Below, in pieces: positions 6,933-25,354 of a stretch of DNA of 25,854 nucleotides. This stretch comes from an uncultured Muribaculaceae bacterium (GTDB lineage: Bacteria > Bacillota_I > Bacilli_A > RF39 > UBA660), in contig CAYOMH010000001.1 of NCBI GenBank assembly GCA_964405055.1, forward strand, positions 9,873 through 35,726, written 5' to 3'. The notes beneath the pieces were generated by a model, which saw only the letters and a list, made by a program, of their open reading frames with translations, ran no database searches and was not told the origin of the DNA. The translations under genes were made by a program, and so were the position numbers. Each line of letters begins with the position of its first letter. The stretch's first letter is position 1.

Positions 6933-6989
6933 TATGCAATTAAACACTAATCAGAATATAGTACTGACTCAACTTACTTAATCGAATAT

Positions 6990-7140: not shown

Positions 7141-7160
7141 TGTAAACGGGTTATATTTAT

Positions 7161-7570: not shown

Positions 7571-7589
7571 ATTTGACGATTAAGAACAA

Positions 7590-7793
7590 TTGGAACAAAA
7601 AATATTGAAGTTAGGTAAAGTAGAATGTAAATTATATACTTTAGAATATACTATTGAATTTAATGATGGAAAATATATAATATATGCAAATTATTATAAA
7701 AACAACAAGACTACATTTAATTCCCTAAAAGAACTTCTAAATAATTTTAAAATATATAACGAAAGTGTTTTGGATAACATCATAAATAGTTAA
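7590..7793 (+). CDS. Small hypothetical protein, possibly the 3' exon of a gene interrupted by the intron
   Basis: 67-aa ORF, TTG start without a clear RBS. The frame extends to the intron 3' boundary with one TAA at 7581. Confidence 0.45.
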   Translation: MEQKILKLGKVECKLYTLEYTIEFNDGKYIIYANYYKNNKTTFNSLKELLNNFKIYNESVLDNIINS

Positions 7794-7812
7794 ATAAAAT
7801 CAAATAATCTAA

Positions 7813-7841
7813 TTGACATTTATAATTTAATTTTGTATAAT
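7813..7841 (+). promoter_or_regulatory. Perfect consensus sigma-A promoter
   Basis: TTGACA (7813-7818), 17 nt ending in TG, TATAAT (7836-7841). Confidence 0.85.
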
Positions 7842-7903
7842 ATAAAGCAATTTTAAGGTGTTGTTCCTGATTATTTATATAAATATTATGATAATTTATT
7901 TTT

Positions 7904-7942
7904 GAGAATAAGAGCAACTCGGTGCTTTTTATTCTCTTTTTT
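7904..7942 (+). terminator. Rho-independent terminator upstream of the operon
   Basis: GAGAATAAGAGCA-actcgg-TGCTTTTTATTCTC stem followed by TTTTTT. Confidence 0.8.
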
Positions 7943-7978
7943 AATATTAATAAAAAAATATTTAAATTTCATGATACA

Positions 7979-7987
7979 TGATATAAT
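7979..7987 (+). promoter_or_regulatory. Possible second, extended -10 promoter for the operon
   Basis: TGaTATAAT lies downstream of the terminator, about 50 nt before ATG 8035. No good -35. Confidence 0.45.
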
Positions 7988-8034
7988 AAAAAAGATAGGC
8001 GACAATTATTTATATGTTACAACAGGAGGTAAAA

Positions 8035-8985
8035 ATGAAAATTTTAATTACAGGTGGAGCAGGATTTATAGGTAGTAATTTAGTATCCAAATTGATAGAA
8101 GATAAAAAAAATAAAATTGTTGTATTGGATAATCTTTCAACAGGGTCAGAAAGAAATATTCAGGAATTTCTAAATTATGAAAATTTTGAATTTTATAAAT
8201 ATGATATTACTGACAGTTCAATTATAGATTATATAAAGAATTTAAATGTGGATGAAATATATAATTTAGCTTGTCCAGCATCTCCAAAATATTATTTGAA
8301 ACATCCAATTGAAACTTGGGAAGCAAGTGTGATTGGTATTCGTAATTTGTTACAAGCTATTAATGGTACAAAGATAAGAATGATTCATTCATCTACATCA
8401 GAAGTATATGGAGATGCCTTAGAATATCCTCAAACTGAAAATTATTGGGGAAATGTAAATCCTATTGGAGTAAGAGCATGCTATGATGAAGGCAAGAGAG
8501 CTGCTGAAGCATTGATATATGATTATATTCGTCAATATAATGTAGATGTAAGAGTTGTTAGAATATTTAATACTTATGGTCCAAAAATGAATCCTTTGGA
8601 TGGTAGAATTGTTTCTAATTTTATAATGCAGGCACTAAATAATGATGATATAACTATTTATGGAAATGGAAAACAAACTAGAAGTTTTTGCTTTGTTGAT
8701 GATACAGTTAATTGTCTTATTAAATTGATGGATTTGGATCAAAAAAATGAATCACCAATAAATGTCGGTAATCCATATGAATTATCTGTAAGTTATGTAG
8801 CAGAATTTATAAAAGAAAGAATTGGTTCATCATCTCAGATAGTATATTTGAATGAAATGTCAGATGATCCTAAGAAAAGAAAACCAAATATATCCAAAGC
8901 TAAAAAAATCATTGATTGGGAACCATGTGTTAGTTTTGAATATGGCATTGATTCAACAATTGATTATTTTAAAAATATTAAGTAA
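8035..8985 (+). CDS. UDP-glucuronate decarboxylase (UDP-xylose synthase), extended SDR family
   Basis: ITGGAGFIGS, YNLACPASP, TSEVYGD, YWGNVNPIG.RACYDEGKR.AE and RIFNTYGP.M...DGR.VSNF. Start placed at ATG 8035 because of the AGGAGG RBS. Confidence 0.9.
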   Translation: MKILITGGAGFIGSNLVSKLIEDKKNKIVVLDNLSTGSERNIQEFLNYENFEFYKYDITDSSIIDYIKNLNVDEIYNLACPASPKYYLKHPIETWEASVIGIRNLLQAINGTKIRMIHSSTSEVYGDALEYPQTENYWGNVNPIGVRACYDEGKRAAEALIYDYIRQYNVDVRVVRIFNTYGPKMNPLDGRIVSNFIMQALNNDDITIYGNGKQTRSFCFVDDTVNCLIKLMDLDQKNESPINVGNPYELSVSYVAEFIKERIGSSSQIVYLNEMSDDPKKRKPNISKAKKIIDWEPCVSFEYGIDSTIDYFKNIK

Positions 8986-9020
8986 ATAATAGAATACATA
9001 AATAAAGATAGGAGATTAGT

Positions 9021-9890
9021 ATGATAGCAGTAAAGAGTTTAGAAATTCATGTATCGTATCATTGTAATTTATCTTGTAAGGGGTGCTCGCATATGACTCC
9101 GTTGGAAAAAGAAAAATTTATTGATGAAAAGGATATCTATGATACATTGAAAATTCTTAGTATGTATTTACATTGCGATGTTATTAGATTAATTGGTGGG
9201 GAACCAACTCTTAATAAAAATCTTGCTGATATTGCCAAAAATATAAAAAAAATTAATATTGCTGATAAAATCGCAATTGCTACTAATGGTATTTTTATTG
9301 ATAGACTTAATGAAGAAGTGTTAGAAAATATTGATGTGTTTGAAATTTCAAATTACCATTATTCAGATAATTTAACAAATAAGATAATTAATTGGGCAAA
9401 AAAGGCAAAAGAAAAATATAATATTAAAACATATATCTATATGTATAAAAATTTTAGAGAATCTATTTCCTTCCAAGAGAACAATAGTACAGATTTAGTA
9501 AAAAATATATATGATACTTGTATTGTGTCTCATGACTGGCAATGTTTCAATGTTTTTGAAGGCTACTTTTTTAAATGTCCACAAGCTATGGCTATATCTA
9601 GAAATATTAAAAATAATCCAATGAATATAAATGGTATTAAAATTGAAAACTCAAATAATTTAGAGATGGAATTGCTTAATTATATAAACAGTACTGAGCC
9701 ATTAAAAGCTTGTACTCATTGCTTAGGTACTGTTGGTAAATATATAGAATTAGATCAAATTCCTAAAAATAAATACAAGGAGTTATCAAATAATTCAATT
9801 GAGGAAATGGTTGATTATGATTTTTTAGAAAAAAATTTAGATGAGAGTACTGGAGATATGCTTACGGTTGAAAATGTAATAGAAATATAG
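9021..9890 (+). CDS. Radical SAM enzyme 1 with C-terminal auxiliary Cys cluster (twitch-like)
   Basis: HCNLSCKGCSH (CxxxCxxC), GGEP, ATNG. C-terminal C..C..KCP...CTHC. Confidence 0.9.
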   Translation: MIAVKSLEIHVSYHCNLSCKGCSHMTPLEKEKFIDEKDIYDTLKILSMYLHCDVIRLIGGEPTLNKNLADIAKNIKKINIADKIAIATNGIFIDRLNEEVLENIDVFEISNYHYSDNLTNKIINWAKKAKEKYNIKTYIYMYKNFRESISFQENNSTDLVKNIYDTCIVSHDWQCFNVFEGYFFKCPQAMAISRNIKNNPMNINGIKIENSNNLEMELLNYINSTEPLKACTHCLGTVGKYIELDQIPKNKYKELSNNSIEEMVDYDFLEKNLDESTGDMLTVENVIEI

Positions 9891-9898
9891 AAGGCTTT

Positions 9899-10930
9899 AT
9901 GGAAAGATATGTTGAAATTGATGGTAAAAATATAAAAGAGTTAATATCAAATAACAATGTTATATGTTGTAGACTAAGAAATTCTAGAATAAAATCAAAG
10001 CAATTAGCAATTATGGAAATGTTGCTAATGAATTATGATTTGGATCTTCGTTTTATTAAAAATGGACCTTTAGGAGATGTTAAAGGCATTGTATCTTTTT
10101 TAATATCAAAAGATAAGATGGATGCATTAACTGAAAGATTAAATAGAATAGGGTATTTTAACGAGTTTTATTTATTAAACTTTGATTCTGAAATATGCGA
10201 AAACAAATCTAATATAGAAACTATTAATCCATTAGTATGGAAAGGATTGAGTTTTTCTATTGAAACAATTTATAAACAAGATGAAAAGTTATATGAACAG
10301 CAATCACCTCATAATAGAACATTTAAAATTGTTTCTTATAATGGTGAAGAAAAAATTTTAAATGGTTATAGAGGAAATGGAACTGATATGGGTAGACGAG
10401 CACTTCCAGTAGAAGATGCAAGATGTTTAGTAAATTTGTCAATACCATTTAATGAAAATAAAGTACTAGAACCGTTTGCTGGTGGTGGAGGAATAATATA
10501 TATGTATAAATATATTAATCCGAATGTTGATATAACAAGTATTGATATAGATGAAACATTAAAACCAGGATTAGAATATTATGGCTCAAAACATATAGTT
10601 GGTTCATCAGCAAGTGTTCACTTATCTGAATCGTATGATGCCATTGTAACAGAAGTTCCTTTTAGTAATAATGCTACTGCATCTGTAGTAGAAGCAATAA
10701 AAAATGTTTATCCTAATTTGGATGAAAAAGGAATTATTGTTCTAATGTGTGGAATTCAACAAAGTAAGGATATTGCAAATTGCTTAAAAGAAGAATTAAA
10801 TAGTAATTTATTATTTAAAAAAGAATTAAACAGAAAAGGCACTGATGTTGTTATACAAGTTTGGACGAAAAATTTTGAACTCTATAATGAATTAGAAAGT
10901 ACAATTTCAACTGTGTCAAAAATATTTTAA
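9899..10930 (+). CDS. Class I SAM-dependent methyltransferase, Trm11/TrmG10 (UPF0020)-like
   Basis: LPVEDARCLVNL...VLEPFAGGGGI resembles the Trm11/Trm14 LP..LA.AMVNL...LDPFCG.G signature. IDID (motif II) and DAIVTEVPF (a DPPY-like motif IV variant) are present. Confidence 0.7.
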   Translation: MERYVEIDGKNIKELISNNNVICCRLRNSRIKSKQLAIMEMLLMNYDLDLRFIKNGPLGDVKGIVSFLISKDKMDALTERLNRIGYFNEFYLLNFDSEICENKSNIETINPLVWKGLSFSIETIYKQDEKLYEQQSPHNRTFKIVSYNGEEKILNGYRGNGTDMGRRALPVEDARCLVNLSIPFNENKVLEPFAGGGGIIYMYKYINPNVDITSIDIDETLKPGLEYYGSKHIVGSSASVHLSESYDAIVTEVPFSNNATASVVEAIKNVYPNLDEKGIIVLMCGIQQSKDIANCLKEELNSNLLFKKELNRKGTDVVIQVWTKNFELYNELESTISTVSKIF

Positions 10931-10947
10931 TAAAAGGAGTGTATCCT

Positions 10948-12576
10948 ATGAAAAAAGTTGTTTTTATGTTACAAAATGGAATTGGATTCGGTCATTTTAA
11001 ATTAGCTTTAACTATATCAAAGTACATGAAAGAGAAATGTGATATTTCGTTTATAACACAAGCTAAATCTACAGTTATATTTGATAACTATGATTATAAA
11101 GTATATAATTTTCCAATGCTATATTCTTTAAAATCTAATAATGAAATATTAATAATGAATAATTTAATTAATAAACTTTTAGAAGATATTCATCCTGATT
11201 TAATAATTGAAGATACTTATCCAGAGGATTTCTATATGAATCTTCCAGCAACAAAAAATATACCAAAATTATTATTAATGAATAGACTAAATGCAACAGA
11301 ATTTGAAAATTTCTTCTATAGTGGTATATTAAATCAATATGATAAATTAATTGTATTAAAGGAAAAAGAAACATTTATTAATGAAATAAGTGCTAAAGAG
11401 GTTAGGAATTATGCTATTTATTCGGATAAAATTAAATATTTAAGTGGTGTATTTAATGAACCATCTGAAACTATAAAAAATGAAGTAGAGCAAAAATATA
11501 ATTTAAAAAAATTTGATAAAAATATTGTTGTTAACTGTGGAGCTGGTGGTTGGCATATTGGAAATAATATTTGTGAGAAAATATTTGATAAAGTAATTAA
11601 TACAACAAACAAATTAGTTGAAAATGGTATAAATATTCAAACAATTTTAGTTCTTGGACCTTATAGTAAATATTTAGAGGAAAAGTATAAAAAAAATATG
11701 AATGAACATATAAAAATAGTAGACTTTGAAACTAACTTAGATGCATTATTTCATAAAGTAGATTTAGTAATTTTAAGACCAGGTTATAATACTACAATGG
11801 AAGCTTTATCTGGGAAACAAAATATTTTATTACTTCCCGGTATATCTTATATGGAAGATCAAGATGTTTGGTGCAGAGAATTAGCTACTACTTATGGAAT
11901 AGATTATTTAAATGTTAATAATTTAGATGAAATAGATTTTAAAATAGAAAGACTGTTAAAAAGAAATGTTAGGACTTCAGTTAAACCAGTAAATAATACT
12001 AAAAATGTTGCGGAAGAAATTTTAAATACACTGAATAAAGATATCGGTAATAAAGAAGTACAAATATGTATTAATAATTTAATAAATGAAGATGACAGTT
12101 TAGTATTGCCTAAAAACGTTTACAATTTAAAAAAAGATAAAACTATAAATAATATAATGGTTTTGAATATGAGTGATATTAGCATATTGGATTATTCTAA
12201 ACACAACAGTTTCATTTTTGTAAACGATATTAAATTAGAATTAAATAGGCAATCTTTTTATAATACACGATATAATCTTGCCGGAATAAATACAATTGAA
12301 TATGAAGAAATTGTATTTATAAATAAAAAGCGATTATTTAATGAAATAATTACTATATTAGATAATCCTCAAAGATTTACTAATAATATAATAATAACAT
12401 TACCTAAAATGACAAAAAATGATTTAAAAGATTTAATTAATTCTTTAAAAGATTTTATTAAAGATAATAAATTAAATGTTATTTCATTAGAAAAAATATT
12501 AACAGATTTGGTAAATGATTCTATTTCAAATTATAAATATGGTTTTTATAGGCCAGAAATTACTAAATTAAATTAG
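10948..12576 (+). CDS. GT-B fold glycosyltransferase (GT1/GT28 C-terminal-like) with a C-terminal extension
   Basis: QNGIGFGH N-terminal motif, VVNCGAGG, VLGPY, VDLVILRPGYNTTMEAL, LLLP. Start placed at ATG 10948 from RBS spacing. Confidence 0.78.
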   Translation: MKKVVFMLQNGIGFGHFKLALTISKYMKEKCDISFITQAKSTVIFDNYDYKVYNFPMLYSLKSNNEILIMNNLINKLLEDIHPDLIIEDTYPEDFYMNLPATKNIPKLLLMNRLNATEFENFFYSGILNQYDKLIVLKEKETFINEISAKEVRNYAIYSDKIKYLSGVFNEPSETIKNEVEQKYNLKKFDKNIVVNCGAGGWHIGNNICEKIFDKVINTTNKLVENGINIQTILVLGPYSKYLEEKYKKNMNEHIKIVDFETNLDALFHKVDLVILRPGYNTTMEALSGKQNILLLPGISYMEDQDVWCRELATTYGIDYLNVNNLDEIDFKIERLLKRNVRTSVKPVNNTKNVAEEILNTLNKDIGNKEVQICINNLINEDDSLVLPKNVYNLKKDKTINNIMVLNMSDISILDYSKHNSFIFVNDIKLELNRQSFYNTRYNLAGINTIEYEEIVFINKKRLFNEIITILDNPQRFTNNIIITLPKMTKNDLKDLINSLKDFIKDNKLNVISLEKILTDLVNDSISNYKYGFYRPEITKLN

Positions 12577-12585
12577 GAGGATAAA

Positions 12586-13470
12586 ATGAACAGATTTAAA
12601 AGTTACAATATCCCAAATATTTCTTTTGAAGAATTAAAAAAGCTAGAAGATCAGTATTTAGAACAAGTGCGTAACGATAATTTGAAAAAAGTGGAAATAA
12701 AAATAAATGATGAAAATATAAATATTAATATTGAACCATTCTATAAAAAATCTTCTTTATGGAGTGAATTAAGAAATTTAATTAAACTAAATAATGTTGA
12801 ATTTTGGTTTAGAGATGATGATGCTGGAATAGACAATAATTCTCTTGATACACTTATGGATTATTTAAATAAAAAGAATATTAATGTGTTAATTGCAGCT
12901 ATACCAAAATTAAGTAATAATGAATTAAAATTTATATTAGACAAATATTATAATTATTTAATTGCCCAACATGGGTATGAACATATAAATTATACTAATG
13001 GTGATTCAAGTGAATATCCTGATACGAGGGAAGTAGAAGTTATTAATAAAGAATTACTTGAAGGTAATAAAATATTAGAAAAATTATTTGAAAATAAATA
13101 TAAAAAAATTTTTATTCCTCCTTGGTTTGAAATAGGTAATAAAGCTAAAAAAATATTAAAGGATAACAATTATTTAGCTATTTCAAATTACTGGACTAAT
13201 AAGATTAATTTTGATGAATTAGTTGAGATAAATTCACAAGTGGACTTTGTTAATTGGGATGATGCATATACATTTGGAGGAGAGGATTTTGTATTAAAAC
13301 AAATAATTAGTGAAATAAATTCTGGTAATAAATGCATTGGATTATTATTACATCATGAAAGAATTGGTAAAGAAACATATTATTTTTTAGATAAGCTAAT
13401 TGATGTAATATTGGAAAATGGTTCCATTACAGATTTTAATACAATTTTAGAAAGTTATAGAAATGATTAG
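12586..13470 (+). CDS. Polysaccharide deacetylase (NodB/CE4-like)
   Basis: FWFRDDD, QHGYEH, FIPPW and LLLHH motifs. No signal peptide. Confidence 0.8.
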   Translation: MNRFKSYNIPNISFEELKKLEDQYLEQVRNDNLKKVEIKINDENININIEPFYKKSSLWSELRNLIKLNNVEFWFRDDDAGIDNNSLDTLMDYLNKKNINVLIAAIPKLSNNELKFILDKYYNYLIAQHGYEHINYTNGDSSEYPDTREVEVINKELLEGNKILEKLFENKYKKIFIPPWFEIGNKAKKILKDNNYLAISNYWTNKINFDELVEINSQVDFVNWDDAYTFGGEDFVLKQIISEINSGNKCIGLLLHHERIGKETYYFLDKLIDVILENGSITDFNTILESYRND

Positions 13471-14335
13471 TGTAATAATACCTACTTATAATTCAGAAAA
13501 GTATATTGTCAATTGTATAAATAGTATTTTAAGTAATACTTATACCAATTATGAAATAATTGTTGTAGATGATGGTTCGACGGATAATACAATTAGTTTA
13601 ATTAATGAATTAAAAATTAATAATATTAAAATTTGCAGAAGCAATAATAAAGGCCCAGGAAGTGCAAGAAATATTGGCATTAAAAATTCCAATGGTAAAT
13701 ATTTATTCTTTTTAGACTCAGATGATTTAATTAATTCAAATACTTTTGAATTGTTAATCAAAGAAATGAAAGATAATGATCTTGTTATAGGCGATTATAA
13801 AATAATCTATGATAATGGAGATATAGAAGAATTTAGTACACCATCAGATTCATCATTTAATAGTTTTTTTGAGTCAGTTACTATATGGAATAGGCTATAT
13901 TTGAAATCATTTATTGAAAATAATAATATTGAATTTGATAATTTATATCAAGGAGAGGATAGATTATTTTTGGCTAAAATGTATCTAGCAAATCCTAAGT
14001 TTAAAGTAGTATCAAAAAGTATCTATAATTGGATAAGGCATGATACCGACAGTAACTCGACATTAACTCATCAAACTACTAAAGATAGGTTTTATAATCA
14101 AGTGGATTGTATGAGAAAGTTTTTAGAAGTATTAATAAATAATATATCAAAGAAAGATAAAGAATTGTTATTAGACCATTTAAGATATAGTTGTATTTAT
14201 TTGATGGAAATATATACATCAATAGATGATAAAACTTGTAAACCAGATAAATTATATGAATTAGCTAATTTATTAGAATTTAATAAATACAAGGATTTAT
14301 ATAAGAAAATATTTAATAAAGAATGGAGTGATTAA
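13463..14335 (+). CDS. Glycosyltransferase family 2
   Basis: ISVIIPTYN, VVDDGSTD, GPGSARN.G, FLDSDD, GEDRLF. Confidence 0.93.
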   Translation: MISVIIPTYNSEKYIVNCINSILSNTYTNYEIIVVDDGSTDNTISLINELKINNIKICRSNNKGPGSARNIGIKNSNGKYLFFLDSDDLINSNTFELLIKEMKDNDLVIGDYKIIYDNGDIEEFSTPSDSSFNSFFESVTIWNRLYLKSFIENNNIEFDNLYQGEDRLFLAKMYLANPKFKVVSKSIYNWIRHDTDSNSTLTHQTTKDRFYNQVDCMRKFLEVLINNISKKDKELLLDHLRYSCIYLMEIYTSIDDKTCKPDKLYELANLLEFNKYKDLYKKIFNKEWSD

Positions 14336-14336
14336 A

Positions 14337-15254
14337 ATGACTGTAGAATTATCAATAGAGGAAAAAATAAATAAGATGCAAGAAGAAATAGATAGTTTAA
14401 AAAAAGAATGTGAATACTGGGCAAAAGAAGTTGAAGATATAACAGAATTATCTTTGCAAAAAATGAGAGGACCTTATATATCATTTGAATATCATTTGAA
14501 CGATCATTGTAATTTAAATTGTAAGGGATGTGATCATTTTTCTCCATTAGCAGAAGAAAAGTTTACTAACTATGAAAATTTTGTAAAAGATATTGATAGA
14601 ATGTCTGAATTGTTTGATGGAAAAGCTAAATCGATTCATATTTTAGGTGGAGAGCCATTATTAAATAAAGATGTTATTAAATATTTAGAAAAAACAAGAA
14701 AAGCATTTCCTGATACTGAATTAACTGAAATAAGATTAATATCTAATGGTATTTTAGTTAATAAAATGAATTCAGAATTTTGGAAAGCATTAAATAAATA
14801 TAATATTATATTATCTGTGACTAAATATCCACTAAAATTAGATTATGATTTAATGAAGAAGACAGCTGATAAATATAATGCTATGTTTGAATTCTATGAT
14901 AATACTGATCAAAATCAAGTATGGTATAACATTAAACTACAAGAAGATGGTAAGAGAGATCCAAAAAGAAGTTATTATAAATGTTTTGTTTCAAACAATT
15001 GTATTATGTTAAAAGAGGGAAAATTATATACTTGTACTTTAATACCTAATATAGAACACTTTAATAAGTTTTTTAATAAACATTTAGAAGTTTGTGATGA
15101 AGATTATATTGATATTTATAAAGCGGAAAACAAAGAACAAATTTTTGATTTTTTAAGTAAACCAGTTCCATTTTGTAGATATTGTAATCCTGATGTTAAA
15201 GATTATTCATTAGCATGGGAACCAACTAATAAAAAAATAGATGAATGGACTTGA
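14337..15254 (+). CDS. Radical SAM enzyme 2 with N-terminal coiled-coil and C-terminal Cys cluster
   Basis: HCNLNCKGCDHF, GGEPLL, ISNG. C-terminal CF...C...YTC...FCRYC. Confidence 0.9.
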   Translation: MTVELSIEEKINKMQEEIDSLKKECEYWAKEVEDITELSLQKMRGPYISFEYHLNDHCNLNCKGCDHFSPLAEEKFTNYENFVKDIDRMSELFDGKAKSIHILGGEPLLNKDVIKYLEKTRKAFPDTELTEIRLISNGILVNKMNSEFWKALNKYNIILSVTKYPLKLDYDLMKKTADKYNAMFEFYDNTDQNQVWYNIKLQEDGKRDPKRSYYKCFVSNNCIMLKEGKLYTCTLIPNIEHFNKFFNKHLEVCDEDYIDIYKAENKEQIFDFLSKPVPFCRYCNPDVKDYSLAWEPTNKKIDEWT

Positions 15255-16347
15255 TTATATGAAATATGTATTATATTCGAGTGACGATGTAACTAATATA
15301 TTAGATAAAAAAGGATTTAATTATGAATATAGAATTACTAATGATTCAAATGAAATGAGTGGTGAAATCAATAGTATTTATTATTTAAAAAACAATTACA
15401 ATGGTGAGACAATAATTATTCCATCATATATTTCGGACGATATAAATCCTGATGATATATATAACTATTTTATATCAATTGGATTTGATCACAATGACAT
15501 TTTGTTTGTTCCAATTGAAATGATTAAAGGAAGAGAAAGCATTGATACAAGTAAGTTTTATAAGTATGGAAGTGTTACATATTTAGATTATATAGAAATA
15601 AATATAAATGATCACTGTAATATGAATTGTAAAGGATGTTCACATTTTGCGCCTCTTGCCCCAACATCTTTTAAAGATTTTAATGTTTTTTTTAAAGATA
15701 TAAAGAGATTAAAAGAATTAATACCACACATATTTAAGATTAGAATAATGGGTGGAGAACCATTTTTAAATCCCGAATTAAAAAAATATGTTAGAGCAAT
15801 AAAGGAAGTATATCCATATACAGATTTGCGAATTGTAACCAATGGGTTATTATTAAAAAATATTGATGATGAAATATTAGATTTTATTAAAAATAATGAT
15901 GTTATGTTAGATATATCAGTGTATCCGCCACTTCATAAAACAATAGATGAAATTGTTCAAAAGCTAAAAGATAAAAAAGTAAAAATTTTCTTAGAAAATA
16001 TTAGTTTTTTCAAACCAATATTATTGAGTGAGAAAGAAAAATATCCATTTAATACATTGCAAAACTGTAATTGTATTAATTTGGAAAATGGATTTATAGC
16101 ATCATGTCCATTACAAACAACTATTAAGTATTATAATGACCATTTTGATAATAAATATGATTATAAAACAAATAAAATAAATATTTATGAATCAATTACT
16201 GGCTCAGATATAAAGAGAAGATTAAAAGAGCCATTTGAATTATGTGATTATTGTGCACATTATCGTGATGATCTACCATATTTTGAATGGAGTAAAAGTA
16301 TAACAAATATAGATTCAAAAGATTGGATTTATAAGAAAGGTAAGTAG
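15241..16347 (+). CDS. Radical SAM enzyme 3 with an N-terminal extension of about 115 aa
   Basis: HCNMNCKGCSHF, GGEPFL, VTNG. C-terminal CNC...SCP...LCDYC. Confidence 0.9.
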   Translation: MNGLDYMKYVLYSSDDVTNILDKKGFNYEYRITNDSNEMSGEINSIYYLKNNYNGETIIIPSYISDDINPDDIYNYFISIGFDHNDILFVPIEMIKGRESIDTSKFYKYGSVTYLDYIEININDHCNMNCKGCSHFAPLAPTSFKDFNVFFKDIKRLKELIPHIFKIRIMGGEPFLNPELKKYVRAIKEVYPYTDLRIVTNGLLLKNIDDEILDFIKNNDVMLDISVYPPLHKTIDEIVQKLKDKKVKIFLENISFFKPILLSEKEKYPFNTLQNCNCINLENGFIASCPLQTTIKYYNDHFDNKYDYKTNKINIYESITGSDIKRRLKEPFELCDYCAHYRDDLPYFEWSKSITNIDSKDWIYKKGK

Positions 16348-16348
16348 T

Positions 16349-17788: not shown

Positions 17789-17791
17789 AAT

Positions 17792-18895
17792 ATGAAAATA
17801 CTAGTATACCTTTATTATCCTGTGTATGAGGATCATTTAGCTGGTGGAGTACAAGTGTGGATAAAAGATTTAATTAAATATATTGAAAAAAAACATCATG
17901 ATATAAAATTTCAAATAATATGTCCAGATGGAGATAGATTTGATTTTGCAAAAGATATTCAAATTGAACATTCTTTAGTTGATATGGAAAGAGATTTCGT
18001 GTCTCCAAAAGATATTTATGACAATTTTAATAAGATAAAAAAATTGGAAGAACAAGCAGATATAATATGGATGATTGATCGTAATTTTCCTATCCAAAGT
18101 AATAAACCCAAATTATTGTCTTTAAATACATTATGTTATGAAAGAGAATTAATGAGTATATTTCAAAGTGGATGGGATAAAATGGTTTGCTTAACAGATT
18201 ATGTAAAAAATCAAATTAAAGATTATATTGATTCTACTAGATTGTATGAAATACCATGTTATGTTAATCCTATATTTTTAAATGTAGATGATAATGAAGA
18301 AATTATAAAAAAATATTTTGACTACGATAAAACAAAAAAATATATTTTATTTCCTCATAGACCAGATTTAGATAAAGGACATTTTGAAGCAATTGACATA
18401 TTAGAAGAATTAATAAAAAAAGACAACTCTTATCGCTTATTAATTCCTAACCCTCCATTAGCTAAAGAAATTAATGTTGATAGAGAACAACATAATATTG
18501 ATATAGTAAAAGAATATGTTAGAAATAAAAATTTAAGTGATTATGTAATATTTCACAAATGGGTAAATTATAGTGATATTCCCTATTATTATAAAATTGG
18601 TGAGTTTACATTATTTTTATCAAAACTTCCAGAAACATTTGGAATTACATTATTAAATTCAGTAAGTGTTGGTATACCTGTATTGAGTTATGGATTTGGA
18701 GCATTAAATGAAGTTGTGCCAACTGGCAGATCTCATATGAACTTTAAAACGAAAGAAGAAGCAGTAAATATAATATTAAAAGGTAAAGATAGTATTGATA
18801 CTATTTCTGATATGAATTATGTAAAAGATAAATATAATTTAGAAACAATTTCTGAACAATATGTTGAATTATTTAAATCGATAAAAGGAGAATAA
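17792..18895 (+). CDS. Glycosyltransferase family 4 (GT-B, retaining)
   Basis: AGGVQ N-terminal motif, R....KG, and ETFGITLLNSVSVGIPV...FGALNEVV (ExFG-type motif). Confidence 0.85.
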   Translation: MKILVYLYYPVYEDHLAGGVQVWIKDLIKYIEKKHHDIKFQIICPDGDRFDFAKDIQIEHSLVDMERDFVSPKDIYDNFNKIKKLEEQADIIWMIDRNFPIQSNKPKLLSLNTLCYERELMSIFQSGWDKMVCLTDYVKNQIKDYIDSTRLYEIPCYVNPIFLNVDDNEEIIKKYFDYDKTKKYILFPHRPDLDKGHFEAIDILEELIKKDNSYRLLIPNPPLAKEINVDREQHNIDIVKEYVRNKNLSDYVIFHKWVNYSDIPYYYKIGEFTLFLSKLPETFGITLLNSVSVGIPVLSYGFGALNEVVPTGRSHMNFKTKEEAVNIILKGKDSIDTISDMNYVKDKYNLETISEQYVELFKSIKGE

Positions 18896-18897
18896 GT

Positions 18898-20064
18898 ATG
18901 AGTAAAGTAAGTATAGTTACAGTCACATTAAATAGGTCATCATTAAAACAAGCATGTAAAAGTGTAGATCGTCAAACATATAAAGATTATCATCATTATG
19001 TTTTAGGAGATGGAGTATTACCAACCGAATATGAAAATCCGAAAAGAAGTTCTCTAGGATTTTCTACTGCCTTAGGTGCTAAAGAACCAGGTGCAAATAT
19101 GCCTAATGGTACACCAAATCCATTATTGAGATGGGCAATTAAAAATTTAGATTTAGGTGATTATTTATGCTTCTTAGATGATGATAATATTTATAAAGAT
19201 AATTATCTTGAAGAAATGGTCAAAGTATTAGATGAAAATCCGGATGTCGGTTTAGTATTATGTGGTGCAGAAGACTTAAGGTATGAACAAAATATAGATG
19301 GCTATCCTGAATTGGGAAGATGTGATAATTCGGCATTTATGGTAAGGAGAGAAATTGCTAAATCAATTGAATTTCCTCATGCTTCCATGGATAAAAATGT
19401 CGTTCAAGATTGTGAATATATTGGTTTGTGCTGTAAGAATAACAAATGGGTTAGTCTAAACAAAAAATTATTAGTGTTTGGGTATGGATTAAACAATCCG
19501 CCTAGTAGAGGTAAAATTATGTATTTAGAATCATGGAAGATACCTCAAGAAGCATTTAAATTAGCTATTCAAAAGAATTACGAAGAGGCAGAAAAAATGT
19601 TTATTGATTCAATTAATGATTGTAATACAGATGCATGGTCAATTAGAAAACTTGCTGAGTTATATATGATTACTAATAGAAAAAGTGAAGCAATGAATTA
19701 TTATAAAATGTGGGAAAAATTATATTTAACTGAAAAAAATCATCATTTTGCAGTAGATTATTCTTATTCAATTTATTTGAAATTAATTGGTAAAGAATAT
19801 GAAGCGTTAATGAAAAAATCTATAATTGAAAGAGAAAAATGGAAAGTAGCAGAGCCAGATGCATTAGAACATTTATACTATTTGTATTTATCATATGCTT
19901 TTTTAGGAAATCAGGACAAGTGCGATGAATATGCAAATTTAATTATTAATGCTGGCAAAGATGCTGTATTATGGGCATATCAAGATGTAGCATGGAATTT
20001 TAAAGTATATCGTGATTTATTTGATATTGATTATCATGTGATGGAAGAATTTTTAGGTGTATAG
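18898..20064 (+). CDS. GT2-like glycosyltransferase fused to a helical TPR-like C-terminal domain
   Basis: VSIVTVT...SVDRQTY, FLDDDN, QDCEY. The C-terminal half has TPR-like helices (YEEAEKMF, LAELY...EAMNYY). Confidence 0.75.
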   Translation: MSKVSIVTVTLNRSSLKQACKSVDRQTYKDYHHYVLGDGVLPTEYENPKRSSLGFSTALGAKEPGANMPNGTPNPLLRWAIKNLDLGDYLCFLDDDNIYKDNYLEEMVKVLDENPDVGLVLCGAEDLRYEQNIDGYPELGRCDNSAFMVRREIAKSIEFPHASMDKNVVQDCEYIGLCCKNNKWVSLNKKLLVFGYGLNNPPSRGKIMYLESWKIPQEAFKLAIQKNYEEAEKMFIDSINDCNTDAWSIRKLAELYMITNRKSEAMNYYKMWEKLYLTEKNHHFAVDYSYSIYLKLIGKEYEALMKKSIIEREKWKVAEPDALEHLYYLYLSYAFLGNQDKCDEYANLIINAGKDAVLWAYQDVAWNFKVYRDLFDIDYHVMEEFLGV

Positions 20065-20763
20065 ATGAAAATATTTTATATTAGTCCGCATTATGATGAT
20101 GCGGTTGGCTCATGTGGAGCAAGGATGTGTAAAGATAATCTAAATAATGAAGTCAGTCTAATTACTGTTTTTTCTGAAGTTAAAAAGCCATTTTCGGATT
20201 ATGCTAATATGCTTCATGATTATTGGAAACTAACCAATCCTTTTAGTGACAGAAAAGAAGAAAATGTTAATGTGTGTAATTATTTAAATATTAGTAATAT
20301 CATGTTAGGATTTTTAGATGCAGTATATCGTACTTCAAATGATATGTATATATATCCTAATCAAGATAGTATTTTTTCAAAAGTTAGTGCATTAGATTCG
20401 GAATTAGTAGATGAAATAAAAAAGAAATTAATTAATTATATAACGAAAGATGATTTATTATATTTTCCACTGAGCGTTGGTTCCCATGTAGATCATGTTA
20501 TTGTAAGTGAAGTTGGAAAGAAATTAAAGAGCGAAAATTATCAAGTAAGATTTTATTTAGATTTCTCATATGATGGCAAGTTACCAAAAATTTGTAATTA
20601 TTTAAATGAAAAAAAACTTAAATTTGATGATAAATTTATAAATAAAAAGATAGAAGCAATGAAATTGTATAAGTCTCAAGTTTGTATGTTATACGGAGAT
20701 GAGACTAAAATAGATGAATATTATAATATTAAACTTGGAGGAGTTGAAATATATTATGAGTAG
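20065..20763 (+). CDS. PIG-L/LmbE-family N-deacetylase
   Basis: SPHYDDAVGSCG (HxDD) and GSHVDH motifs. Confidence 0.9.
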   Translation: MKIFYISPHYDDAVGSCGARMCKDNLNNEVSLITVFSEVKKPFSDYANMLHDYWKLTNPFSDRKEENVNVCNYLNISNIMLGFLDAVYRTSNDMYIYPNQDSIFSKVSALDSELVDEIKKKLINYITKDDLLYFPLSVGSHVDHVIVSEVGKKLKSENYQVRFYLDFSYDGKLPKICNYLNEKKLKFDDKFINKKIEAMKLYKSQVCMLYGDETKIDEYYNIKLGGVEIYYE

Positions 20764-21535
20764 TGAATTACCATTAATTACAGTAATTACTGTTACTAAA
20801 AACAGGCCTAATTTATTAAAACGAGCAATTGAAACAGTTAAGAATCAAACATATTCAAATATCAAGCATTTGATTATTATAGATGAATGCCCAAAAACTT
20901 TAGAAATGATGGAATTAAATTATAAAAATGATCCAAAAATAGAATATGAATACATGAAAAGGATTCCAAATGAAAAAAGCGGACCTAGCGTATTAGCAAG
21001 ATTAAGAACATATACTATTCATAAAATTGGAGAAGGTTGGTTTTCTTTTTTAGATGATGATAATGAGTTTTATCCAAATCATATTGAAGAGCTATATAAA
21101 TTTGCAATTTCTCATGATTGTAATGCTGTTCATTCATATCGTGAAGTCATTTATAAAGATGGTACTCCGTATTTAAAAGAAGAATGGCCTTGGGGGAGAA
21201 CTTATGAAAAGAAATTAGAAACATATAATTATATGAAGGAAGCAGGTGTTGTTGTTCCTGGAAGCAACATTTGGCACGATAGATTTGGTTATACAGTAGA
21301 TACTAATGTATGGCTATTAAGAGCAGAATTATTTAATAATAAAGAAATAAAAAATAAATATACTGAAGAAGACTATGATGAATGTCGCCCTGAAGATGAA
21401 AAAATGATGGAATTACTAATCAAAAATAATGTTAGGGTATTAACAAATCAAATGCCTACAGTTAAATATTATTTGGGTGGATATTCTAATGATAGTGATG
21501 ATCCAATCGAAGGAACAATCACATGGGAAAGATAA
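20756..21535 (+). CDS. GT2-like glycosyltransferase
   Basis: LITVITVTKNRP.LL.RAI.TV.NQTY, FLDDDN, DTN..L, PEDE. Start placed at ATG 20756, overlapping the upstream stop. Confidence 0.8.
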   Translation: MSSELPLITVITVTKNRPNLLKRAIETVKNQTYSNIKHLIIIDECPKTLEMMELNYKNDPKIEYEYMKRIPNEKSGPSVLARLRTYTIHKIGEGWFSFLDDDNEFYPNHIEELYKFAISHDCNAVHSYREVIYKDGTPYLKEEWPWGRTYEKKLETYNYMKEAGVVVPGSNIWHDRFGYTVDTNVWLLRAELFNNKEIKNKYTEEDYDECRPEDEKMMELLIKNNVRVLTNQMPTVKYYLGGYSNDSDDPIEGTITWER

Positions 21536-23052
21536 GAAATTTTAAAACAACAAATAAAATTTTAAATTATGTTAATGATTATCAATATATAAAAGATGAT
21601 TATGAAATGAAATTTGGAGAATCACTTAATCATCAACCATATGATTCAATTAATAATTATCCATTAAAAGAGTGCAAATATAAAGTAAGCTTAATTATTT
21701 CAACTTGGAATAGTTGTAATTCTTTAAGGATGACTTTAAAAACAATTGAAAATACATATATCTGTAATAATTTTAATAATAAATTAGAAGTAGTTATTGT
21801 AGATGATGGTTCAGATGATGAAACATATAATTTAATAGAAAATAATGATTATAATTTAAAATTAAAGTATATTAAACAAGTCCATTTGGGTAGAGCACAA
21901 GGAATAAATTTAGGAGTATTAAATTCATCAGGAGAGATGATTATATTTTTAGATGCTGATATTTTATTGTTTCCATATACAATAGACGAAATTGTTAAAA
22001 GGCAACAAGAATACTTGGATGATGTTATTTGTTTTGGATTTAGAGAAGATGTGTTTGATGTTCCTAACGAGGACAGTAAAATTATTGAATATGTTAATAA
22101 TTTTAAACCTAGTTTTTGGTTAGATAATAGATTTACTTATGATTTTCAAGGAAGTTTTGGTAGTAATATGATGTTAGAAACAAACATTATGTTAAGTTAT
22201 TCCACAAAGAAGAATATATGGGTGAGTAACAATGTCAAAGCTATATATGATTGTTGGCAAGTATATCGTATGGTTTATGGCTTTTTATTTGCAGTAAGTA
22301 AAAAAAATTTTGAATTATTTGGAGGTTTTGCAGAATTTTTAGTAGGATGGGGATGCGATGATACTTTATTTGTTTCTTTGGCTGTAGAAAATAATCTGAA
22401 ATTAATACCTATTCCATCAGCACATTGTTTACATATTTATCATGATATTAGAATGAAAAGTCAATGGGAAGATGGAAAGAAAAACGAAGAAAGAATGTAT
22501 AATTATATTTCTAAAAATAATCGTATAAATTTTTTGGATAATGACTATGAATCAAGAATAGTTTCTAGAATAAATAAACAATTAAAATTTAAACCGAAAT
22601 ATATAAAGAAAATCATTAGGAAAAATAATGATAATCTAGAAAATGCTAATTATCATTATTATTTAGGAAACCTAGAAGAAGCTTTAGAATCATATAAAAA
22701 TATAATTGATGACTTAGATATCATAAATTTAGAAAATTTATTTGATATAATTGTTAGATTAGGAGATAAAGATACATTTAATAGTATTAATAATATTAAT
22801 AATCATGAATGTTTTTATTATCATTTAGGTAATTACATATTTAATCATAAAATAGATTATAATAAAGAATCTAAAAGTATTTATTTAGAATTTTTAAATA
22901 ATATCAATTTAGATGAACTAGAAGAAAGAGCAGAGCAATATTTATATGAAGAACAATATTATCTATCTTTATTAGATTATTTTGGCATTTACATTAAAAC
23001 TCAAAAAAATAAAAGGAAAATAGATAAAATAATAAATAAATTATATCATTAG
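21523..23052 (+). CDS. Glycosyltransferase family 2 with a helical/TPR-like C-terminus
   Basis: VSLIISTWN, VIVDDGSDD, RAQGIN.G, FLDAD, FGGF.E...GWGCDD, HIYH. Confidence 0.88.
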   Translation: MGKIRNFKTTNKILNYVNDYQYIKDDYEMKFGESLNHQPYDSINNYPLKECKYKVSLIISTWNSCNSLRMTLKTIENTYICNNFNNKLEVVIVDDGSDDETYNLIENNDYNLKLKYIKQVHLGRAQGINLGVLNSSGEMIIFLDADILLFPYTIDEIVKRQQEYLDDVICFGFREDVFDVPNEDSKIIEYVNNFKPSFWLDNRFTYDFQGSFGSNMMLETNIMLSYSTKKNIWVSNNVKAIYDCWQVYRMVYGFLFAVSKKNFELFGGFAEFLVGWGCDDTLFVSLAVENNLKLIPIPSAHCLHIYHDIRMKSQWEDGKKNEERMYNYISKNNRINFLDNDYESRIVSRINKQLKFKPKYIKKIIRKNNDNLENANYHYYLGNLEEALESYKNIIDDLDIINLENLFDIIVRLGDKDTFNSINNINNHECFYYHLGNYIFNHKIDYNKESKSIYLEFLNNINLDELEERAEQYLYEEQYYLSLLDYFGIYIKTQKNKRKIDKIINKLYH

Positions 23053-23066
23053 GAGGCTTTTTGAAC

Positions 23067-23858
23067 ATGGCAAATCGAATAGATAAAGAAATGGTAACAA
23101 GAAAATTAGTACCATCTCGAACAAAAGCACAAGAATTAATTAAATCAAAATTAGTTGTTTGTAATGGAAAACTTATTGATAAAATGAATTATTTAGTATC
23201 TGCAGAAGATGAAATAATAATTACTGAAAACGATAAATTAAAGTATGTTTCCAGAGGCGGTTTAAAATTAGAACATGCAATAAAAAAATTTAATCTAGAT
23301 ATTAATGGATTAAAAATAATGGATATTGGATCAAGTACTGGTGGATTTTGTGATTGTGCGCTTCAGCATGGTGCATCATCAATAATCGCAATTGATGTTG
23401 GAACAGATTTGTTACATAAATCATTAAGAAATAATAAATTAATTGATTTACATGAAAAAACGAATTTTAAGGATTTAGATAGTAAATATTTTAATGATAT
23501 TGATCTAATAGTTTGTGATGTATCATTTATATCTTTGAAACAAATTATTGATAAGATACCATCAGAAAATATAAAAATTGATATTGTGTGTTTAATAAAA
23601 CCTCAATTTGAATGTGGAAAAGAAATTGCTACTAAATATAAGGGAATTATTCTAAATAAGGATATTCATATTGATATAATAAACTCATTAATAAACTATT
23701 TTAATGAAAACGAATTTTATATTAAAAATTTAGTATCCTCTCCAATTAGAGGTGGAGATGGAAATATTGAGTATTTAACATTTATTTCAAATAAAATAAA
23801 TCATAACGAGGAAGTAAATGTTAAAAAAATAGTTTTTGATGCTTTTAATAATTTATAA
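23067..23858 (+). CDS. tlyA: TlyA-family rRNA (cytidine-2'-O)-methyltransferase (S4 + FtsJ domains)
   Basis: RID..MV.R.L..SR.KA, YVSRGGLKL, DIGSSTGGFCD, DVSFIS, IKPQFE, SPIRGGDGN.EY. Confidence 0.93.
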   Translation: MANRIDKEMVTRKLVPSRTKAQELIKSKLVVCNGKLIDKMNYLVSAEDEIIITENDKLKYVSRGGLKLEHAIKKFNLDINGLKIMDIGSSTGGFCDCALQHGASSIIAIDVGTDLLHKSLRNNKLIDLHEKTNFKDLDSKYFNDIDLIVCDVSFISLKQIIDKIPSENIKIDIVCLIKPQFECGKEIATKYKGIILNKDIHIDIINSLINYFNENEFYIKNLVSSPIRGGDGNIEYLTFISNKINHNEEVNVKKIVFDAFNNL

Positions 23859-23932
23859 AATATTGATTTATGGCAGTTTAAAATATTTTTAAATAATGAA
23901 TTTACATATTGAGTAGATTGGTGGAATGTATT

Positions 23933-25099
23933 ATGAAAATAGCAGTTGCTGGAACAGGATATGTAGGATTATCTTTAGCAGTACTCTTATCTAGAAAAAA
24001 TGAAGTGGTAGCTTTAGATGTAATAAAAGAAAAGGTAGATATGATTAATAATAAAATATCGCCAATTAAAGATAAAGAAATAGAAGAATATTTAAGCACT
24101 AAGGAACTTAATTTAAAAGCCACTTTAGATTATAAGGAAGCTTTTGAAGGAGCAAATTATATAATTATTAGCACACCAACTAATTATGATGATAAAACTA
24201 ATTGTTTTGATACTTCTAGTGTAGAAGATATCATAAAAAAAGTTATTGATATGAATATTGATACTACAATGGTTGTTAAATCAACTGTACCTGTTGGATT
24301 TATTAAAGAAATAAAAGAAAAATATAATATAAATAATATAATGTTTTCACCAGAATTTTTAAGAGAAGGAAAAGCTTTATATGATAATTTATATCCATCA
24401 AGAATTATAATTGGTGAAAAAAGTATGAGAGCAGAAGTATTTGTTAATTTACTTAAAGATGCAGCTTTAAAAGAAGATGTTCCAGTTTTATTTATGGATA
24501 GTACTGAAGCAGAAGCTGTTAAATTATTTGCCAATACATATTTAGCTTTAAGAGTATCATATTTTAATGAATTAGATACATATGCTGAGGTAAAAGGATT
24601 AAACACTAAAGATATAATTGATGGTGTATGTTCAGACCCAAGAATAGGTAATCACTATAATAATCCATCATTTGGATATGGGGGATATTGTTTACCTAAA
24701 GATACAAAACAATTACTTGCTAATTATAATGAGGTACCACAAAATATGATTGAAGCAATTGTAAAATCAAATGATACTAGAAAAGAACATATTGCCAATG
24801 AAATATTAAAATGGAATCCAAAAATAGTAGGAGTATATCGATTAACAATGAAAAGTTGTTCTGATAATTTTAGAGCTAGTGCAATATATGATGTTATGCA
24901 AAGATTAAAAAATAATAATGTTAATATTATTATTTATGAGCCTACAATAAAAGAAAATACATATAATGGATTTGAAATTATTCATGATTTAAAACTATTC
25001 AAAGATATAAGTGAAGCTATTATTGCAAATAGGTATGATAATAAATTAGATGATATTAAAGATAAAATATATACAAGGGATATATATAACAGAGACTAA
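23933..25099 (+). CDS. ugd: UDP-glucose 6-dehydrogenase
   Basis: [53 protein letters not shown] (catalytic Cys). Confidence 0.96.
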
Positions 25100-25231
25100 T
25101 ATTTTACAATTTTTTAATTGTTAAAAATTACAATTTTTTTAAGATTTAATAAATGTTATTTAATATATGAACTATTAGTTAATTATAGAATAAAAAAGAT
25201 ACTTTTAAAATAAAAATAGGAGGCGTGTAGT

Positions 25232-25354
25232 ATTATTAAACGAATCGATCGAATCATATCAGAACAAACAAATTATAGTAGAAAAGAAATAAAAAAATTA
25301 ATTTCTAAAGGTTTAATATATGTGAATAATGAAAAAATAAAAAAACAAGAATAA
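25232..25354 (+). pseudogene. N-terminal S4-domain fragment of an RsuA/RluB-type pseudouridine synthase
   Basis: IIKRIDRIISEQTNYSRKEIKKLISKGLIYVNNEKIKKQE* follows a GGAGG RBS (25219-25223). No in-frame ATG and no catalytic domain. Confidence 0.7.

Follow-up and report, generated by a model that had tools for sequence, protein, structure and literature searches.

A sixteen-gene glycan operon on a decayed integrative element, and its possible role in making an aminoglycoside-like oligosaccharide

Aminoglycoside and orthosomycin antibiotic clusters are the closest described counterparts of the locus reported here. Orthosomycin clusters, such as those for avilamycin and everninomicin, direct the synthesis of a hepta- or octasaccharide and contain many glycosyltransferases (GTs) together with a uridine diphosphate (UDP)-glucuronate decarboxylase (AviE2). 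Their radical S-adenosylmethionine (SAM) epimerase AviX12 works on the assembled glycoside, and the rRNA methyltransferases AviRa and AviRb provide self-resistance. Among aminoglycosides, gentamicin uses xylose. The subject of this report is a window of 25,854 nucleotides (G000:C1:9873-35726, from GenBank assembly GCA_964405055.1) that holds a 16-gene operon with a UDP-xylose supply, which would fit the gentamicin precedent, and with GTs, radical SAM enzymes, deacetylases and RNA-type methyltransferases. The operon is the cargo of a decayed serine-recombinase integrative element. We tentatively read it, at slightly less than an even chance, as a mobile cluster for a soluble aminoglycoside-like oligosaccharide that contains xylose and glucosamine, with the rRNA modifiers possibly serving in self-protection. 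The host assembly is fragmentary (84% complete, 684 kb, 25.5% GC), and genomes of other members of the same genus measure 0.8-0.9 Mb. The host uses genetic code 11, and several of the genes end in TGA. DNA near-identical to the window is present in independent bioreactor, wastewater, digester and soil metagenomes.

The operon spans about 17 kb, and the listing of open reading frames (ORFs) gives 16 intact co-oriented ORFs on the forward strand from 8014 (or an internal ATG at 8035) to 25099. An earlier note on this DNA, made from the sequence alone, had counted 15 genes and one methyltransferase; two methyltransferase genes are present (9899-10930 and 23061-23858), and one of them was apparently left out of the tally. 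The rest of its inventory holds, as Pfam and NCBIfam searches find three radical SAM enzymes, seven GT-like proteins (one GT28C-like, four GT2, one GT-D-like and one GT4), two deacetylases (one DUF2334/Polysacc_deac_1 and one PIG-L), the UDP-glucuronate decarboxylase UXS and the UDP-glucose 6-dehydrogenase Ugd among the 16. The gene overlaps that it listed are seen at 13463/13470, 15241/15254, 20064/20065 and 21523/21535, while that at 20756/20763 depends on the start chosen for GT2c, the ORF of which opens at 20714. Its remark that the proteins have no transmembrane (TM) segment is borne out by a 19-residue Kyte-Doolittle scan, in which all 16 lack TM-like segments; the sole value above 1.6 belongs to the Rossmann N-terminus of Ugd. 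The likely operon promoter, of the sigma-70 kind (TTGACA, 17 nucleotides, TATAAT; 7813-7841, forward strand), is the only 12/12 consensus match in 6600-25854. The promoter region shares 85% identity with the DNA that precedes a related cluster on metagenome contig L013, and no terminator-like site was found on the forward strand within the cluster. Two metatranscriptomes contain short near-identical contigs from at least eight places in the operon, which suggests that it is transcribed.

The first radical SAM enzyme, rSAM1 (9021-9890), is encoded by a core gene of the cluster and is of the SpeY/HygY type, that is, a twitch radical SAM sugar-alcohol dehydrogenase/epimerase. It is a full-length homolog (E 8e-47) of PDB entry 7WZV, which was identified through the fold search as the twitch radical SAM dehydrogenase SpeY. 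The predicted structure (predicted local distance difference test score, pLDDT, 94.9) superposes on SpeY with Z 39.6 and a root mean square deviation of 1.4 A over 286 residues, and BtrN comes next (Z 14.6). Literature searches found nothing for structure 7WZV, and on radical SAM enzymes with UDP-xylose or SpeY they returned reviews only. A further relative, sharing 30% identity with rSAM1 (E 1e-61), is the radical SAM enzyme of a hygromycin-B-type cluster on a plasmid of Streptomyces sp. SAT1. That cluster holds APH(7'')-Ia, a GT4, a short-chain dehydrogenase/reductase (SDR) beside the radical SAM gene, and two ABC exporters. We take its radical SAM enzyme to be HygY, presumably itself a member of the SpeY/BtrN class. 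By these comparisons rSAM1 is a SpeY-class twitch radical SAM enzyme, and by analogy it would act on a glycoside intermediate. A 46%-identical rSAM1 homolog (L031:2446-3339) stands alone beside a Na/Pi cotransporter and a 7184-amino-acid (aa) surface protein, outside any glycan cluster.

The other two radical SAM enzymes, rSAM2 (14328-15254; 7WZV, E 2e-9) and rSAM3 (15241-16347; 7WZV, E 4e-10), are paralogs 29-31% identical to rSAM1. They have the CX3CX2C motif and C-terminal cysteines in common, and rSAM3 carries an N-terminal extension of about 110 aa. In genome G026 (locus L002, G026:C8, 547-2283) one 579-aa ORF joins a GT2a-like and an rSAM2-like domain, and because of this fusion we couple rSAM2 to the preceding glycosyl transfer by GT2a. 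The fusion ORF is followed by another GT2 and a carbamoyltransferase. Loci rich in radical SAM genes, which look like natural-product clusters and also encode APH kinases, a carbamoyltransferase and UbiA, contain distant homologs of rSAM3. The three enzymes, of which rSAM1 is the one with its class shown, would act on particular hydroxyls of sugars already transferred, by oxidation or epimerisation.

The sugar supply is encoded at the two ends of the operon. UXS (8014-8985) matches human UXS1 (PDB 2b69) over its full length with E 1.8e-99. Its assignment is secure at the level of homology, with 336 bits to human UXS1 versus at most 153 bits for the next SDR class. Ugd (23909-25099) matches NF011631 with E 8.8e-173. 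Judged by this strong homology, the two enzymes would provide UDP-glucuronate and UDP-xylose. Three core genes, for GT4 (17792-18895; PF00534, E 2.6e-15), the 388-aa GT-A protein GT2b (18898-20064) and a PIG-L/LmbE-type N-acetylglucosamine (GlcNAc) de-N-acetylase (20065-20763; PF02585), lie next to each other across versions of the cluster, except in alphaproteobacterial metagenome-assembled genomes (MAGs), where no separate PIG-L was detected. GT2b is among the most conserved GTs of the cluster (50-78% identity in L015, L030, L032 and L038). In the PDB the PIG-L protein comes closest to Dbv21 (E 6.5e-14) and teicoplanin Orf2*, two enzymes that remove the acetyl group from scaffold-bound GlcNAc in antibiotics. 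From homology and this conserved adjacency, GT4 would put GlcNAc on the acceptor and PIG-L would unmask the amine, much as Dbv21 and BtrD deacetylate antibiotic intermediates.

Chain lengthening would fall to GT2b and up to five more GTs. These are a 545-aa GT-B protein (10939-12576) with a Glyco_tran_28_C-like part (PF04101, E 1.5e-6), a C-terminal region without assignment and orthologs in L015, L032, L038 and L057; GT2a (13463-14335; PF00535, E 2.6e-37); a 479-aa protein with a C-terminal GT-D-like domain (16349-17788; PF22882, E 1.1e-6); GT2c (20714-21535; PF00535, E 8.8e-14); and GT2d (21523-23052), a 509-aa GT2 with a Glyco_transf_7C region (PF00535, E 9.4e-19; PF02709, E 4e-5). The DUF2334/polysaccharide-deacetylase-like protein (12586-13470; PF10096, E 1.4e-8; PF01522, E 6.6e-4) may perform a second deacetylation. 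PDB sequence searches with GT4 and the 545-aa GT-B protein and an ESM Atlas look-up with GT2b were uninformative. On our preferred reading the oligosaccharide would be assembled in the cytoplasm on an acceptor other than a polyprenol lipid.

The two methyltransferases of the operon are of RNA type. TlyA (23061-23858) resembles the S4 and FtsJ domain rRNA cytidine-2'-O-methyltransferases in its fold, in its K-D-K-E catalytic tetrad and in its hidden Markov model score (197.7 bits to TIGR00478, for which the cut-off is 185.8). It matches PDB 3hp7 and 7s0s over both domains and retains nearly all of the housekeeping-invariant residues, including the GGLKLE, DVSFIS, KPQFE and GNIE motifs. As judged from its sequence it is a canonical rRNA 2'-O-methyltransferase, and because it is canonical and has kept the housekeeping-invariant residues, a role in sugar tailoring is unlikely. 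It is the sole TlyA in the assembly. Within the host family TlyA is rare and of scattered occurrence, and the operon protein shares just 47% identity with the housekeeping copies of G002 and G018. Three of the four hosts with a tlyA-less cluster have TlyA elsewhere in the genome, which agrees with a requirement for TlyA and supports it weakly, since TlyA is common in bacteria. The L015 version has kept tlyA despite its relocation within the cluster, to directly after the gene for the other methyltransferase. A family member without the cluster (L018, G024:C70) has, at the end of a contig and next to a D-Ala-D-Ala carboxypeptidase, a TlyA of the cluster type with 81% identity. This gene is either the leftover of a lost island or a mark of the source lineage of the island tlyA.

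The second of these enzymes is a 343-aa methyltransferase encoded by a core gene (9899-10930) that is present in every cluster version. It has the Trm11 fold (profile match to Trm11 entries 5e71/6zxw, E 6e-15). Its model (pLDDT 96.2) consists of a THUMP domain and a Rossmann domain, and residues 14-325 match 6ZXV (A. fulgidus Trm11) with Z 23.7, followed by Trm14, TrmN and RlmLK. The family has 158 representatives among 1.84 billion proteins. Its motif IV reads T-E-x-P-F (T-E-V-P-F here) with E252 and P254 invariant, where Trm11 has D/N-P-P-Y/F, and we do not file the enzyme as a Trm11 ortholog because this motif is non-canonical. The family stands alone in 76 of 80 genome loci, including those of the closest homologs (44-48% identity). 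One stand-alone homolog (G378) lies in the housekeeping block recO-glyS-dnaG-sigA-trmK, and no neighbour of the stand-alone genes recurs in three or more loci. A specific relationship to the 'DNA methyltransferase' of the hygromycin-type cluster was rejected, as the alignment is confined to the SAM-binding motif (47 columns, probability 81%); that protein is a conceptual precedent only. The THUMP-fold enzyme may be a recruited RNA methyltransferase, or an amino-methyltransferase reused on the unmasked sugar amine. In the pathway we propose, it would accordingly have either RNA or that amine (by N-methylation) as its substrate, and TlyA would 2'-O-methylate rRNA and, together with a pseudouridine synthase of related islands, adapt the ribosome of the producer for self-protection.

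At least nine versions of the cluster were found in Bacillota and Alphaproteobacteria, one of them in the cultured Paenibacillus lautus NRS-1281, where it occupies roughly 693-732 kb of NZ_JBCNHV010000001.1. Orthologous clusters of the same gene order are found on metagenome contigs L011/L012, L013, L014 and L015, with rSAM3 identities of 52-86%. The L011 version has an extra SDR and a dehydrogenase. In the L013 version (75% identity) ugd is reduced to a 58-aa remnant (L013:18570-18746) and the other 15 genes are intact; IS30-like transposase fragments lie upstream. The L030 version is 39-54% identical, and the L032 version has a shuffled gene order and a tandemly duplicated methyltransferase gene. 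The core set, comprising the 343-aa methyltransferase, GT4, GT2b, PIG-L and rSAM1, occurs together also in the divergent L030, L032 and P. lautus versions and in three alphaproteobacterial MAGs, in which the searches run did not detect a separate PIG-L. TlyA, rSAM2, rSAM3, the GT-D protein and GT2a are accessory. The identities of individual genes are mosaic among versions, which points to exchange of modules between variants. The P. lautus version has a GC content of about 36%, which we take to be well below the genome average, and by this contrast it looks acquired there too. Inside the block it has two ABC_membrane/ABC_tran exporters of about 590 aa, and its further additions are a class-III aminotransferase, a Methyltransf_24 gene, another GT, and a neighbouring double GNAT and AMP-ligases. 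The small flanking ORFs of eight versions, compared all against all, share only an XRE regulator (L014 and L015), and a linked acceptor peptide or precursor of a ribosomally synthesised and post-translationally modified peptide was dropped as a candidate. An alphaproteobacterial copy (L057:885-4636) borders on a fragment of a terminase large subunit and on a ParB-N6/N4 DNA methylase and may be prophage-borne. Phage carriage was rejected as a general account, since a comparison with 50,697 phage records yielded nothing that matches the THUMP methyltransferase.

The cluster genes are under purifying selection. Measured against L011 and L013, the 15 genes tested all have ratios of nonsynonymous to synonymous substitution rates (dN/dS) of 0.06-0.38. 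The 343-aa methyltransferase has the lowest (0.06-0.09), and TlyA (0.16-0.19) is level with the biosynthetic genes. In independent DNA runs the cluster differs by substitutions only, and the indels reported are intergenic except for one compensating pair in ugd.

The flanking mobility genes have decayed around this intact cargo, as the earlier note had proposed. The island measures about 21 kb and lies between lepB and rbgA. On its left is an N-terminally truncated TraG/VirD4 coupling-protein fragment (5661-6695, forward strand), which matches only positions 189-434 of the 468 of the Pfam profile T4SS-DNA_transf. On its right is a 5'-truncated large serine recombinase (25381-25854, forward strand), which matches Pfam Recombinase at positions 72-99 and Zn_ribbon_recom. 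What this ORF encodes aligns with residues ~270-516 of a 553-aa recombinase, and there is no resolvase domain upstream; the ORF continues on contig C34 and is followed there by rbgA-rnhB-topA. Between the operon and the recombinase is a 38-codon stub of an S4-domain pseudouridine synthase (25232-25345, forward strand), 76% identical by tblastn to residues 1-38 of a 234-aa PseudoU_synth_2 protein of L122. L122 is the closest relative, and its copy of the cluster ends with TlyA, Ugd, the intact pseudouridine synthase (L122:12025-12729), small ORFs and an intact 553-aa serine recombinase. Since the synthase is intact at the same position there, the island family carries a third RNA-modifying gene, which has decayed in the window. 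The L122 cluster is inserted beside mraY and ftsW, a chromosomal site that differs from that of the window. Neither the radical SAM nor the GT-D proteins turned up in any of the five genomes searched from this genus, nor did they in most of the family, and G002 and G005 have the rimM-lepB block without the island. In these two genomes lepB precedes an unrelated 339-aa gene and not rbgA, so that absence of the island is shown and an exact empty site is not.

Some further features of the window and the host genome stand apart from the cargo. A group II intron domain V-VI remnant (7497-7570, forward strand; Rfam RF00029, full model 1-77, E 8.8e-6, 39.1 bits against a gathering score of 40) is placed between the TraG fragment and the operon promoter, with no ORF for an intron-encoded protein nearby. 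The upstream part of the window is the block rimM-trmD-rplS-lepB. A 146-aa ORF between trmD and rplS (3522-3962, forward strand) has no Pfam match and occurs at the same position, with 64-67% identity, in same-genus genomes. Contig C22 of the host carries a second TraG homolog (G000:C22:2912-3418), 41% identical to the window fragment, and a few kb away a homolog of the pseudouridine synthase (G000:C22:6981-7670), 35% identical to that of L122. The pair may come from a further copy of the mobile element or from an element akin to it.

The at least nine versions, from two phyla, contain no priming transferase, Wzx/Wzy, ABC-2 exporter or LCP ligase. Homologous clusters with wzx, wzy or a priming GT, which the earlier note had named as evidence that would speak against it, were not met with among them. 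Its description of the locus as exporter-less applies to the window and to the orthologous low-GC versions and does not extend to P. lautus, where the ABC exporter pair lies inside the cluster. Because of this pair, the missing exporter is a trait of the reduced-genome versions and not of the system. The P. lautus product is probably exported, to judge from these genes. In reduced-genome hosts export could be left to host functions or lysis, or the product could act inside the cell. We favour a soluble amino-oligosaccharide because the cluster is exporter-less, because lipid-carrier machinery is missing from at least nine versions, and because its enzymes are like those of aminoglycoside and glycopeptide pathways. 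It is also in keeping with this choice that the GTs native to the host can be assigned to CsbB/YfhO- and LtaS-linked genes.

Several points weigh against this choice. The evidence for transcription consists of short contigs from RNA libraries, in which DNA carry-over is possible. The 16 window proteins include no cyclitol- or aglycone-forming enzyme and no aminotransferase. Nor is a 2-deoxy-scyllo-inosose or inositol-phosphate synthase domain present in the versions that were annotated (P. lautus, L015, L030 and L032), and the class-III aminotransferase occurs in the P. lautus version only. As many as seven GTs are more usual where a polysaccharide repeat unit is built than in aminoglycoside synthesis, and the low-GC versions have no exporter. 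In the assembled 84% of the host genome a solitary TagO-like primer and an LCP ligase have no obvious GT set of their own. A 39%-identical rSAM3 homolog in Kineothrix sits in a flagellin-glycosylation-like island. As to self-protection, TlyA sensitises cells to capreomycin, and we know of no drug from which TlyA methylation protects. The acceptor could be a small molecule, a protein, a lipid or RNA. The earlier note's proposal of cytoplasmic assembly on a soluble acceptor survives in part: the key enzymes are nearest to SpeY, the hygromycin-type radical SAM enzyme, BtrN and Dbv21, while the 'methyltransferase' it invoked is a canonical TlyA, and the TagO and LCP proteins of the host leave room for a surface polymer.

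A cell-wall-linked heteropolysaccharide is the first rival, and we consider it unlikely. Here undecaprenyl phosphate would be primed by a TagO/WecA-like enzyme of the host, and a host transporter and a host LCP ligase would do the rest. The host Glycos_transf_4 genes are MraY, in the dcw cluster, and the solitary TagO-like gene on another contig (C32:2722-3771). There is an LCP ligase on C24 and an ABC-2 permease fragment on C38, and a Polysacc_synt match beside rpoBC is a MurJ/YtgP-like flippase. Only two GT2 genes were found outside the island, one CsbB-like next to YfhO and one beside an LtaS-type synthase. These genes would suit a wall glycan, as would the seven GTs, which fit a complex repeat unit, and a GT-D homolog in G016 that is flanked by a GT4 and an SDR sugar-modifying gene in what looks like an ordinary polysaccharide locus. 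However, no version in either phylum has a primer, flippase, polymerase, ABC-2 exporter or ligase, and the sole exporter seen is the pair of ABC_membrane type. The key enzymes match those of antibiotic pathways, the P. lautus aminotransferase is of class III and not of the DegT type, and the conserved TlyA and THUMP methyltransferase are left unexplained by a wall glycan.

It is clearly less probable that the operon is a cytoplasmic protein O-glycosylation island, which would modify a secreted or surface protein before export, as in the flagellin and serine-rich-repeat adhesin systems. Those systems likewise have no transporters, and the only GT-D enzyme known to have been characterised acts on a serine-rich adhesin. 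The weak GT-D match in the cluster, a weak TPR match in an alphaproteobacterial GT2b fusion, and the position of the Kineothrix rSAM3 homolog beside FliB, a GT2-TPR protein and FkbM methyltransferases point in the same direction. Against this stand the lack of a flagellin gene in the genome, for which flagellin glycosylation was rejected, the lack of any conserved acceptor ORF accompanying the versions, and the lack of a Maf, GtfA/B or OGT-type initiating enzyme. Such an island would also be hard to square with two features of P. lautus, its class-III aminotransferase and its pair of ABC exporters. Bac_transf, Wzy, flagellin, SpoIVA and SASP were not found in the host genome (84% complete). 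A mother-cell spore-surface glycan was dropped: a Spo0A C-terminal domain is present within an open frame of just 120 aa (G000:C2:1719-2018), while SpoIVA and SASP were not found. In such a genome the Spo0A_C ORF may be a relic of a sporulating ancestor. A known defence system was likewise set aside, since PADLOC gave only generic pVip and mad2 similarity (21-46 bits).

There is a slim chance that the oligosaccharide we propose is an intracellular, ribosome-binding product that acts behind rRNA-modification immunity, for example as a chemical anti-phage defence. Such a product would account for the exporter-less reduced-genome versions. Slimmer still is the chance of a glycolipid or lipoglycan, in which GlcNAc is put onto a membrane lipid and then deacetylated, as in glycosylphosphatidylinositol (GPI)-type (PIG-A/PIG-L) or glucosaminyl-phosphatidylglycerol pathways. 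Synthesis of the GPI core is defined by just such a pairing of GT4 with PIG-L, GT4 has a weak match to glucosaminyl-phosphatidylglycerol synthase (NF053787, 18.9 bits), and peripheral GTs do not need TM segments, but the PIG-L protein is nearer to antibiotic deacetylases, nothing in the cluster is lipid-related, and the RNA-type genes would be unexplained. A glycan on tRNA or rRNA, with the THUMP-fold enzyme docking on the RNA and TlyA and the pseudouridine synthase modifying the same molecule, would amount to a bacterial RNA-glycosylation pathway on a mobile element and is very improbable: although three RNA-modifying enzymes with RNA-binding domains (THUMP, S4 and S4) travel with the cluster, and the THUMP enzyme is a core gene, the most constrained one, of a mostly stand-alone family that implies a universal cellular substrate, there is no bacterial precedent, an RNA adduct built by seven GTs and three sugar-oxidising radical SAM enzymes would be very large, the pseudouridine synthase is decayed here, TlyA is missing from several versions, and motif IV of the THUMP enzyme is non-canonical.

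If the operon does make an aminoglycoside-like oligosaccharide, it would represent an uncharacterised family of such clusters outside actinomycetes, spread on integrative elements among very small-genome anaerobes of digesters and wastewater, Paenibacillus and Alphaproteobacteria; sample labels alone would add the gut to the habitats of the carriers. The SpeY/BtrN class of radical SAM sugar oxidoreductases would then appear in a new setting, with three paralogs per cluster. The link of a glycan pathway to TlyA, a THUMP methyltransferase and a pseudouridine synthase suggests a new mechanism of self-protection or a ribosome-directed compound, and the cultured carrier P. lautus NRS-1281 makes this directly testable. 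Were the product a surface glycan or a glycoprotein, its radical SAM tailoring would still be unusual.

Set beside the known systems, the locus shares some parts with each. With surface polysaccharide and wall teichoic acid loci it has in common several soluble GT2 and GT4 enzymes, Ugd, UXS and deacetylases, whereas the primer, flippase, polymerase, ABC-2 exporter, chain-length regulator and LCP gene of those loci are absent from every version. It resembles flagellin and serine-rich-repeat protein glycosylation islands in its transporter-less soluble GTs and methyltransferases, its GT-D-like domain and its distant radical SAM homolog in Kineothrix, and differs from them in having no flagellin in the genome, no linked acceptor gene and no characteristic initiating GT. 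The likeness to orthosomycin clusters is one of logic only and does not come from sequence comparison with avilamycin proteins; a polyketide synthase, orthoester-forming oxygenases and deoxysugar genes are absent here. The hygromycin B, spectinomycin and butirosin clusters (with HygY, SpeY, BtrN and BtrM/BtrD) share with it the SpeY-class radical SAM enzyme and, as in the SAT1 cluster, an adjoining SDR. These aminoglycoside clusters are also matched by GT4 and the LmbE/PIG-L deacetylase, by the class-III aminotransferase and ABC exporter pair of the P. lautus version, and by TlyA as a candidate target-modifying self-resistance gene. They differ in that the window has no cyclitol synthase and no aminotransferase, and in that the low-GC versions have neither an exporter nor a kinase or acetyltransferase resistance gene. 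The candidate resistance genes here are of TlyA and Trm11 type, with no 16S m7G1405 or m1A1408 methyltransferase. The number of GTs in those clusters is one to three, with a single radical SAM enzyme, where this operon has seven GTs and three radical SAM paralogs. The known aminoglycoside producers are actinomycetes, whereas the hosts of this cluster are low-GC reduced-genome anaerobes, Paenibacillus and Alphaproteobacteria.

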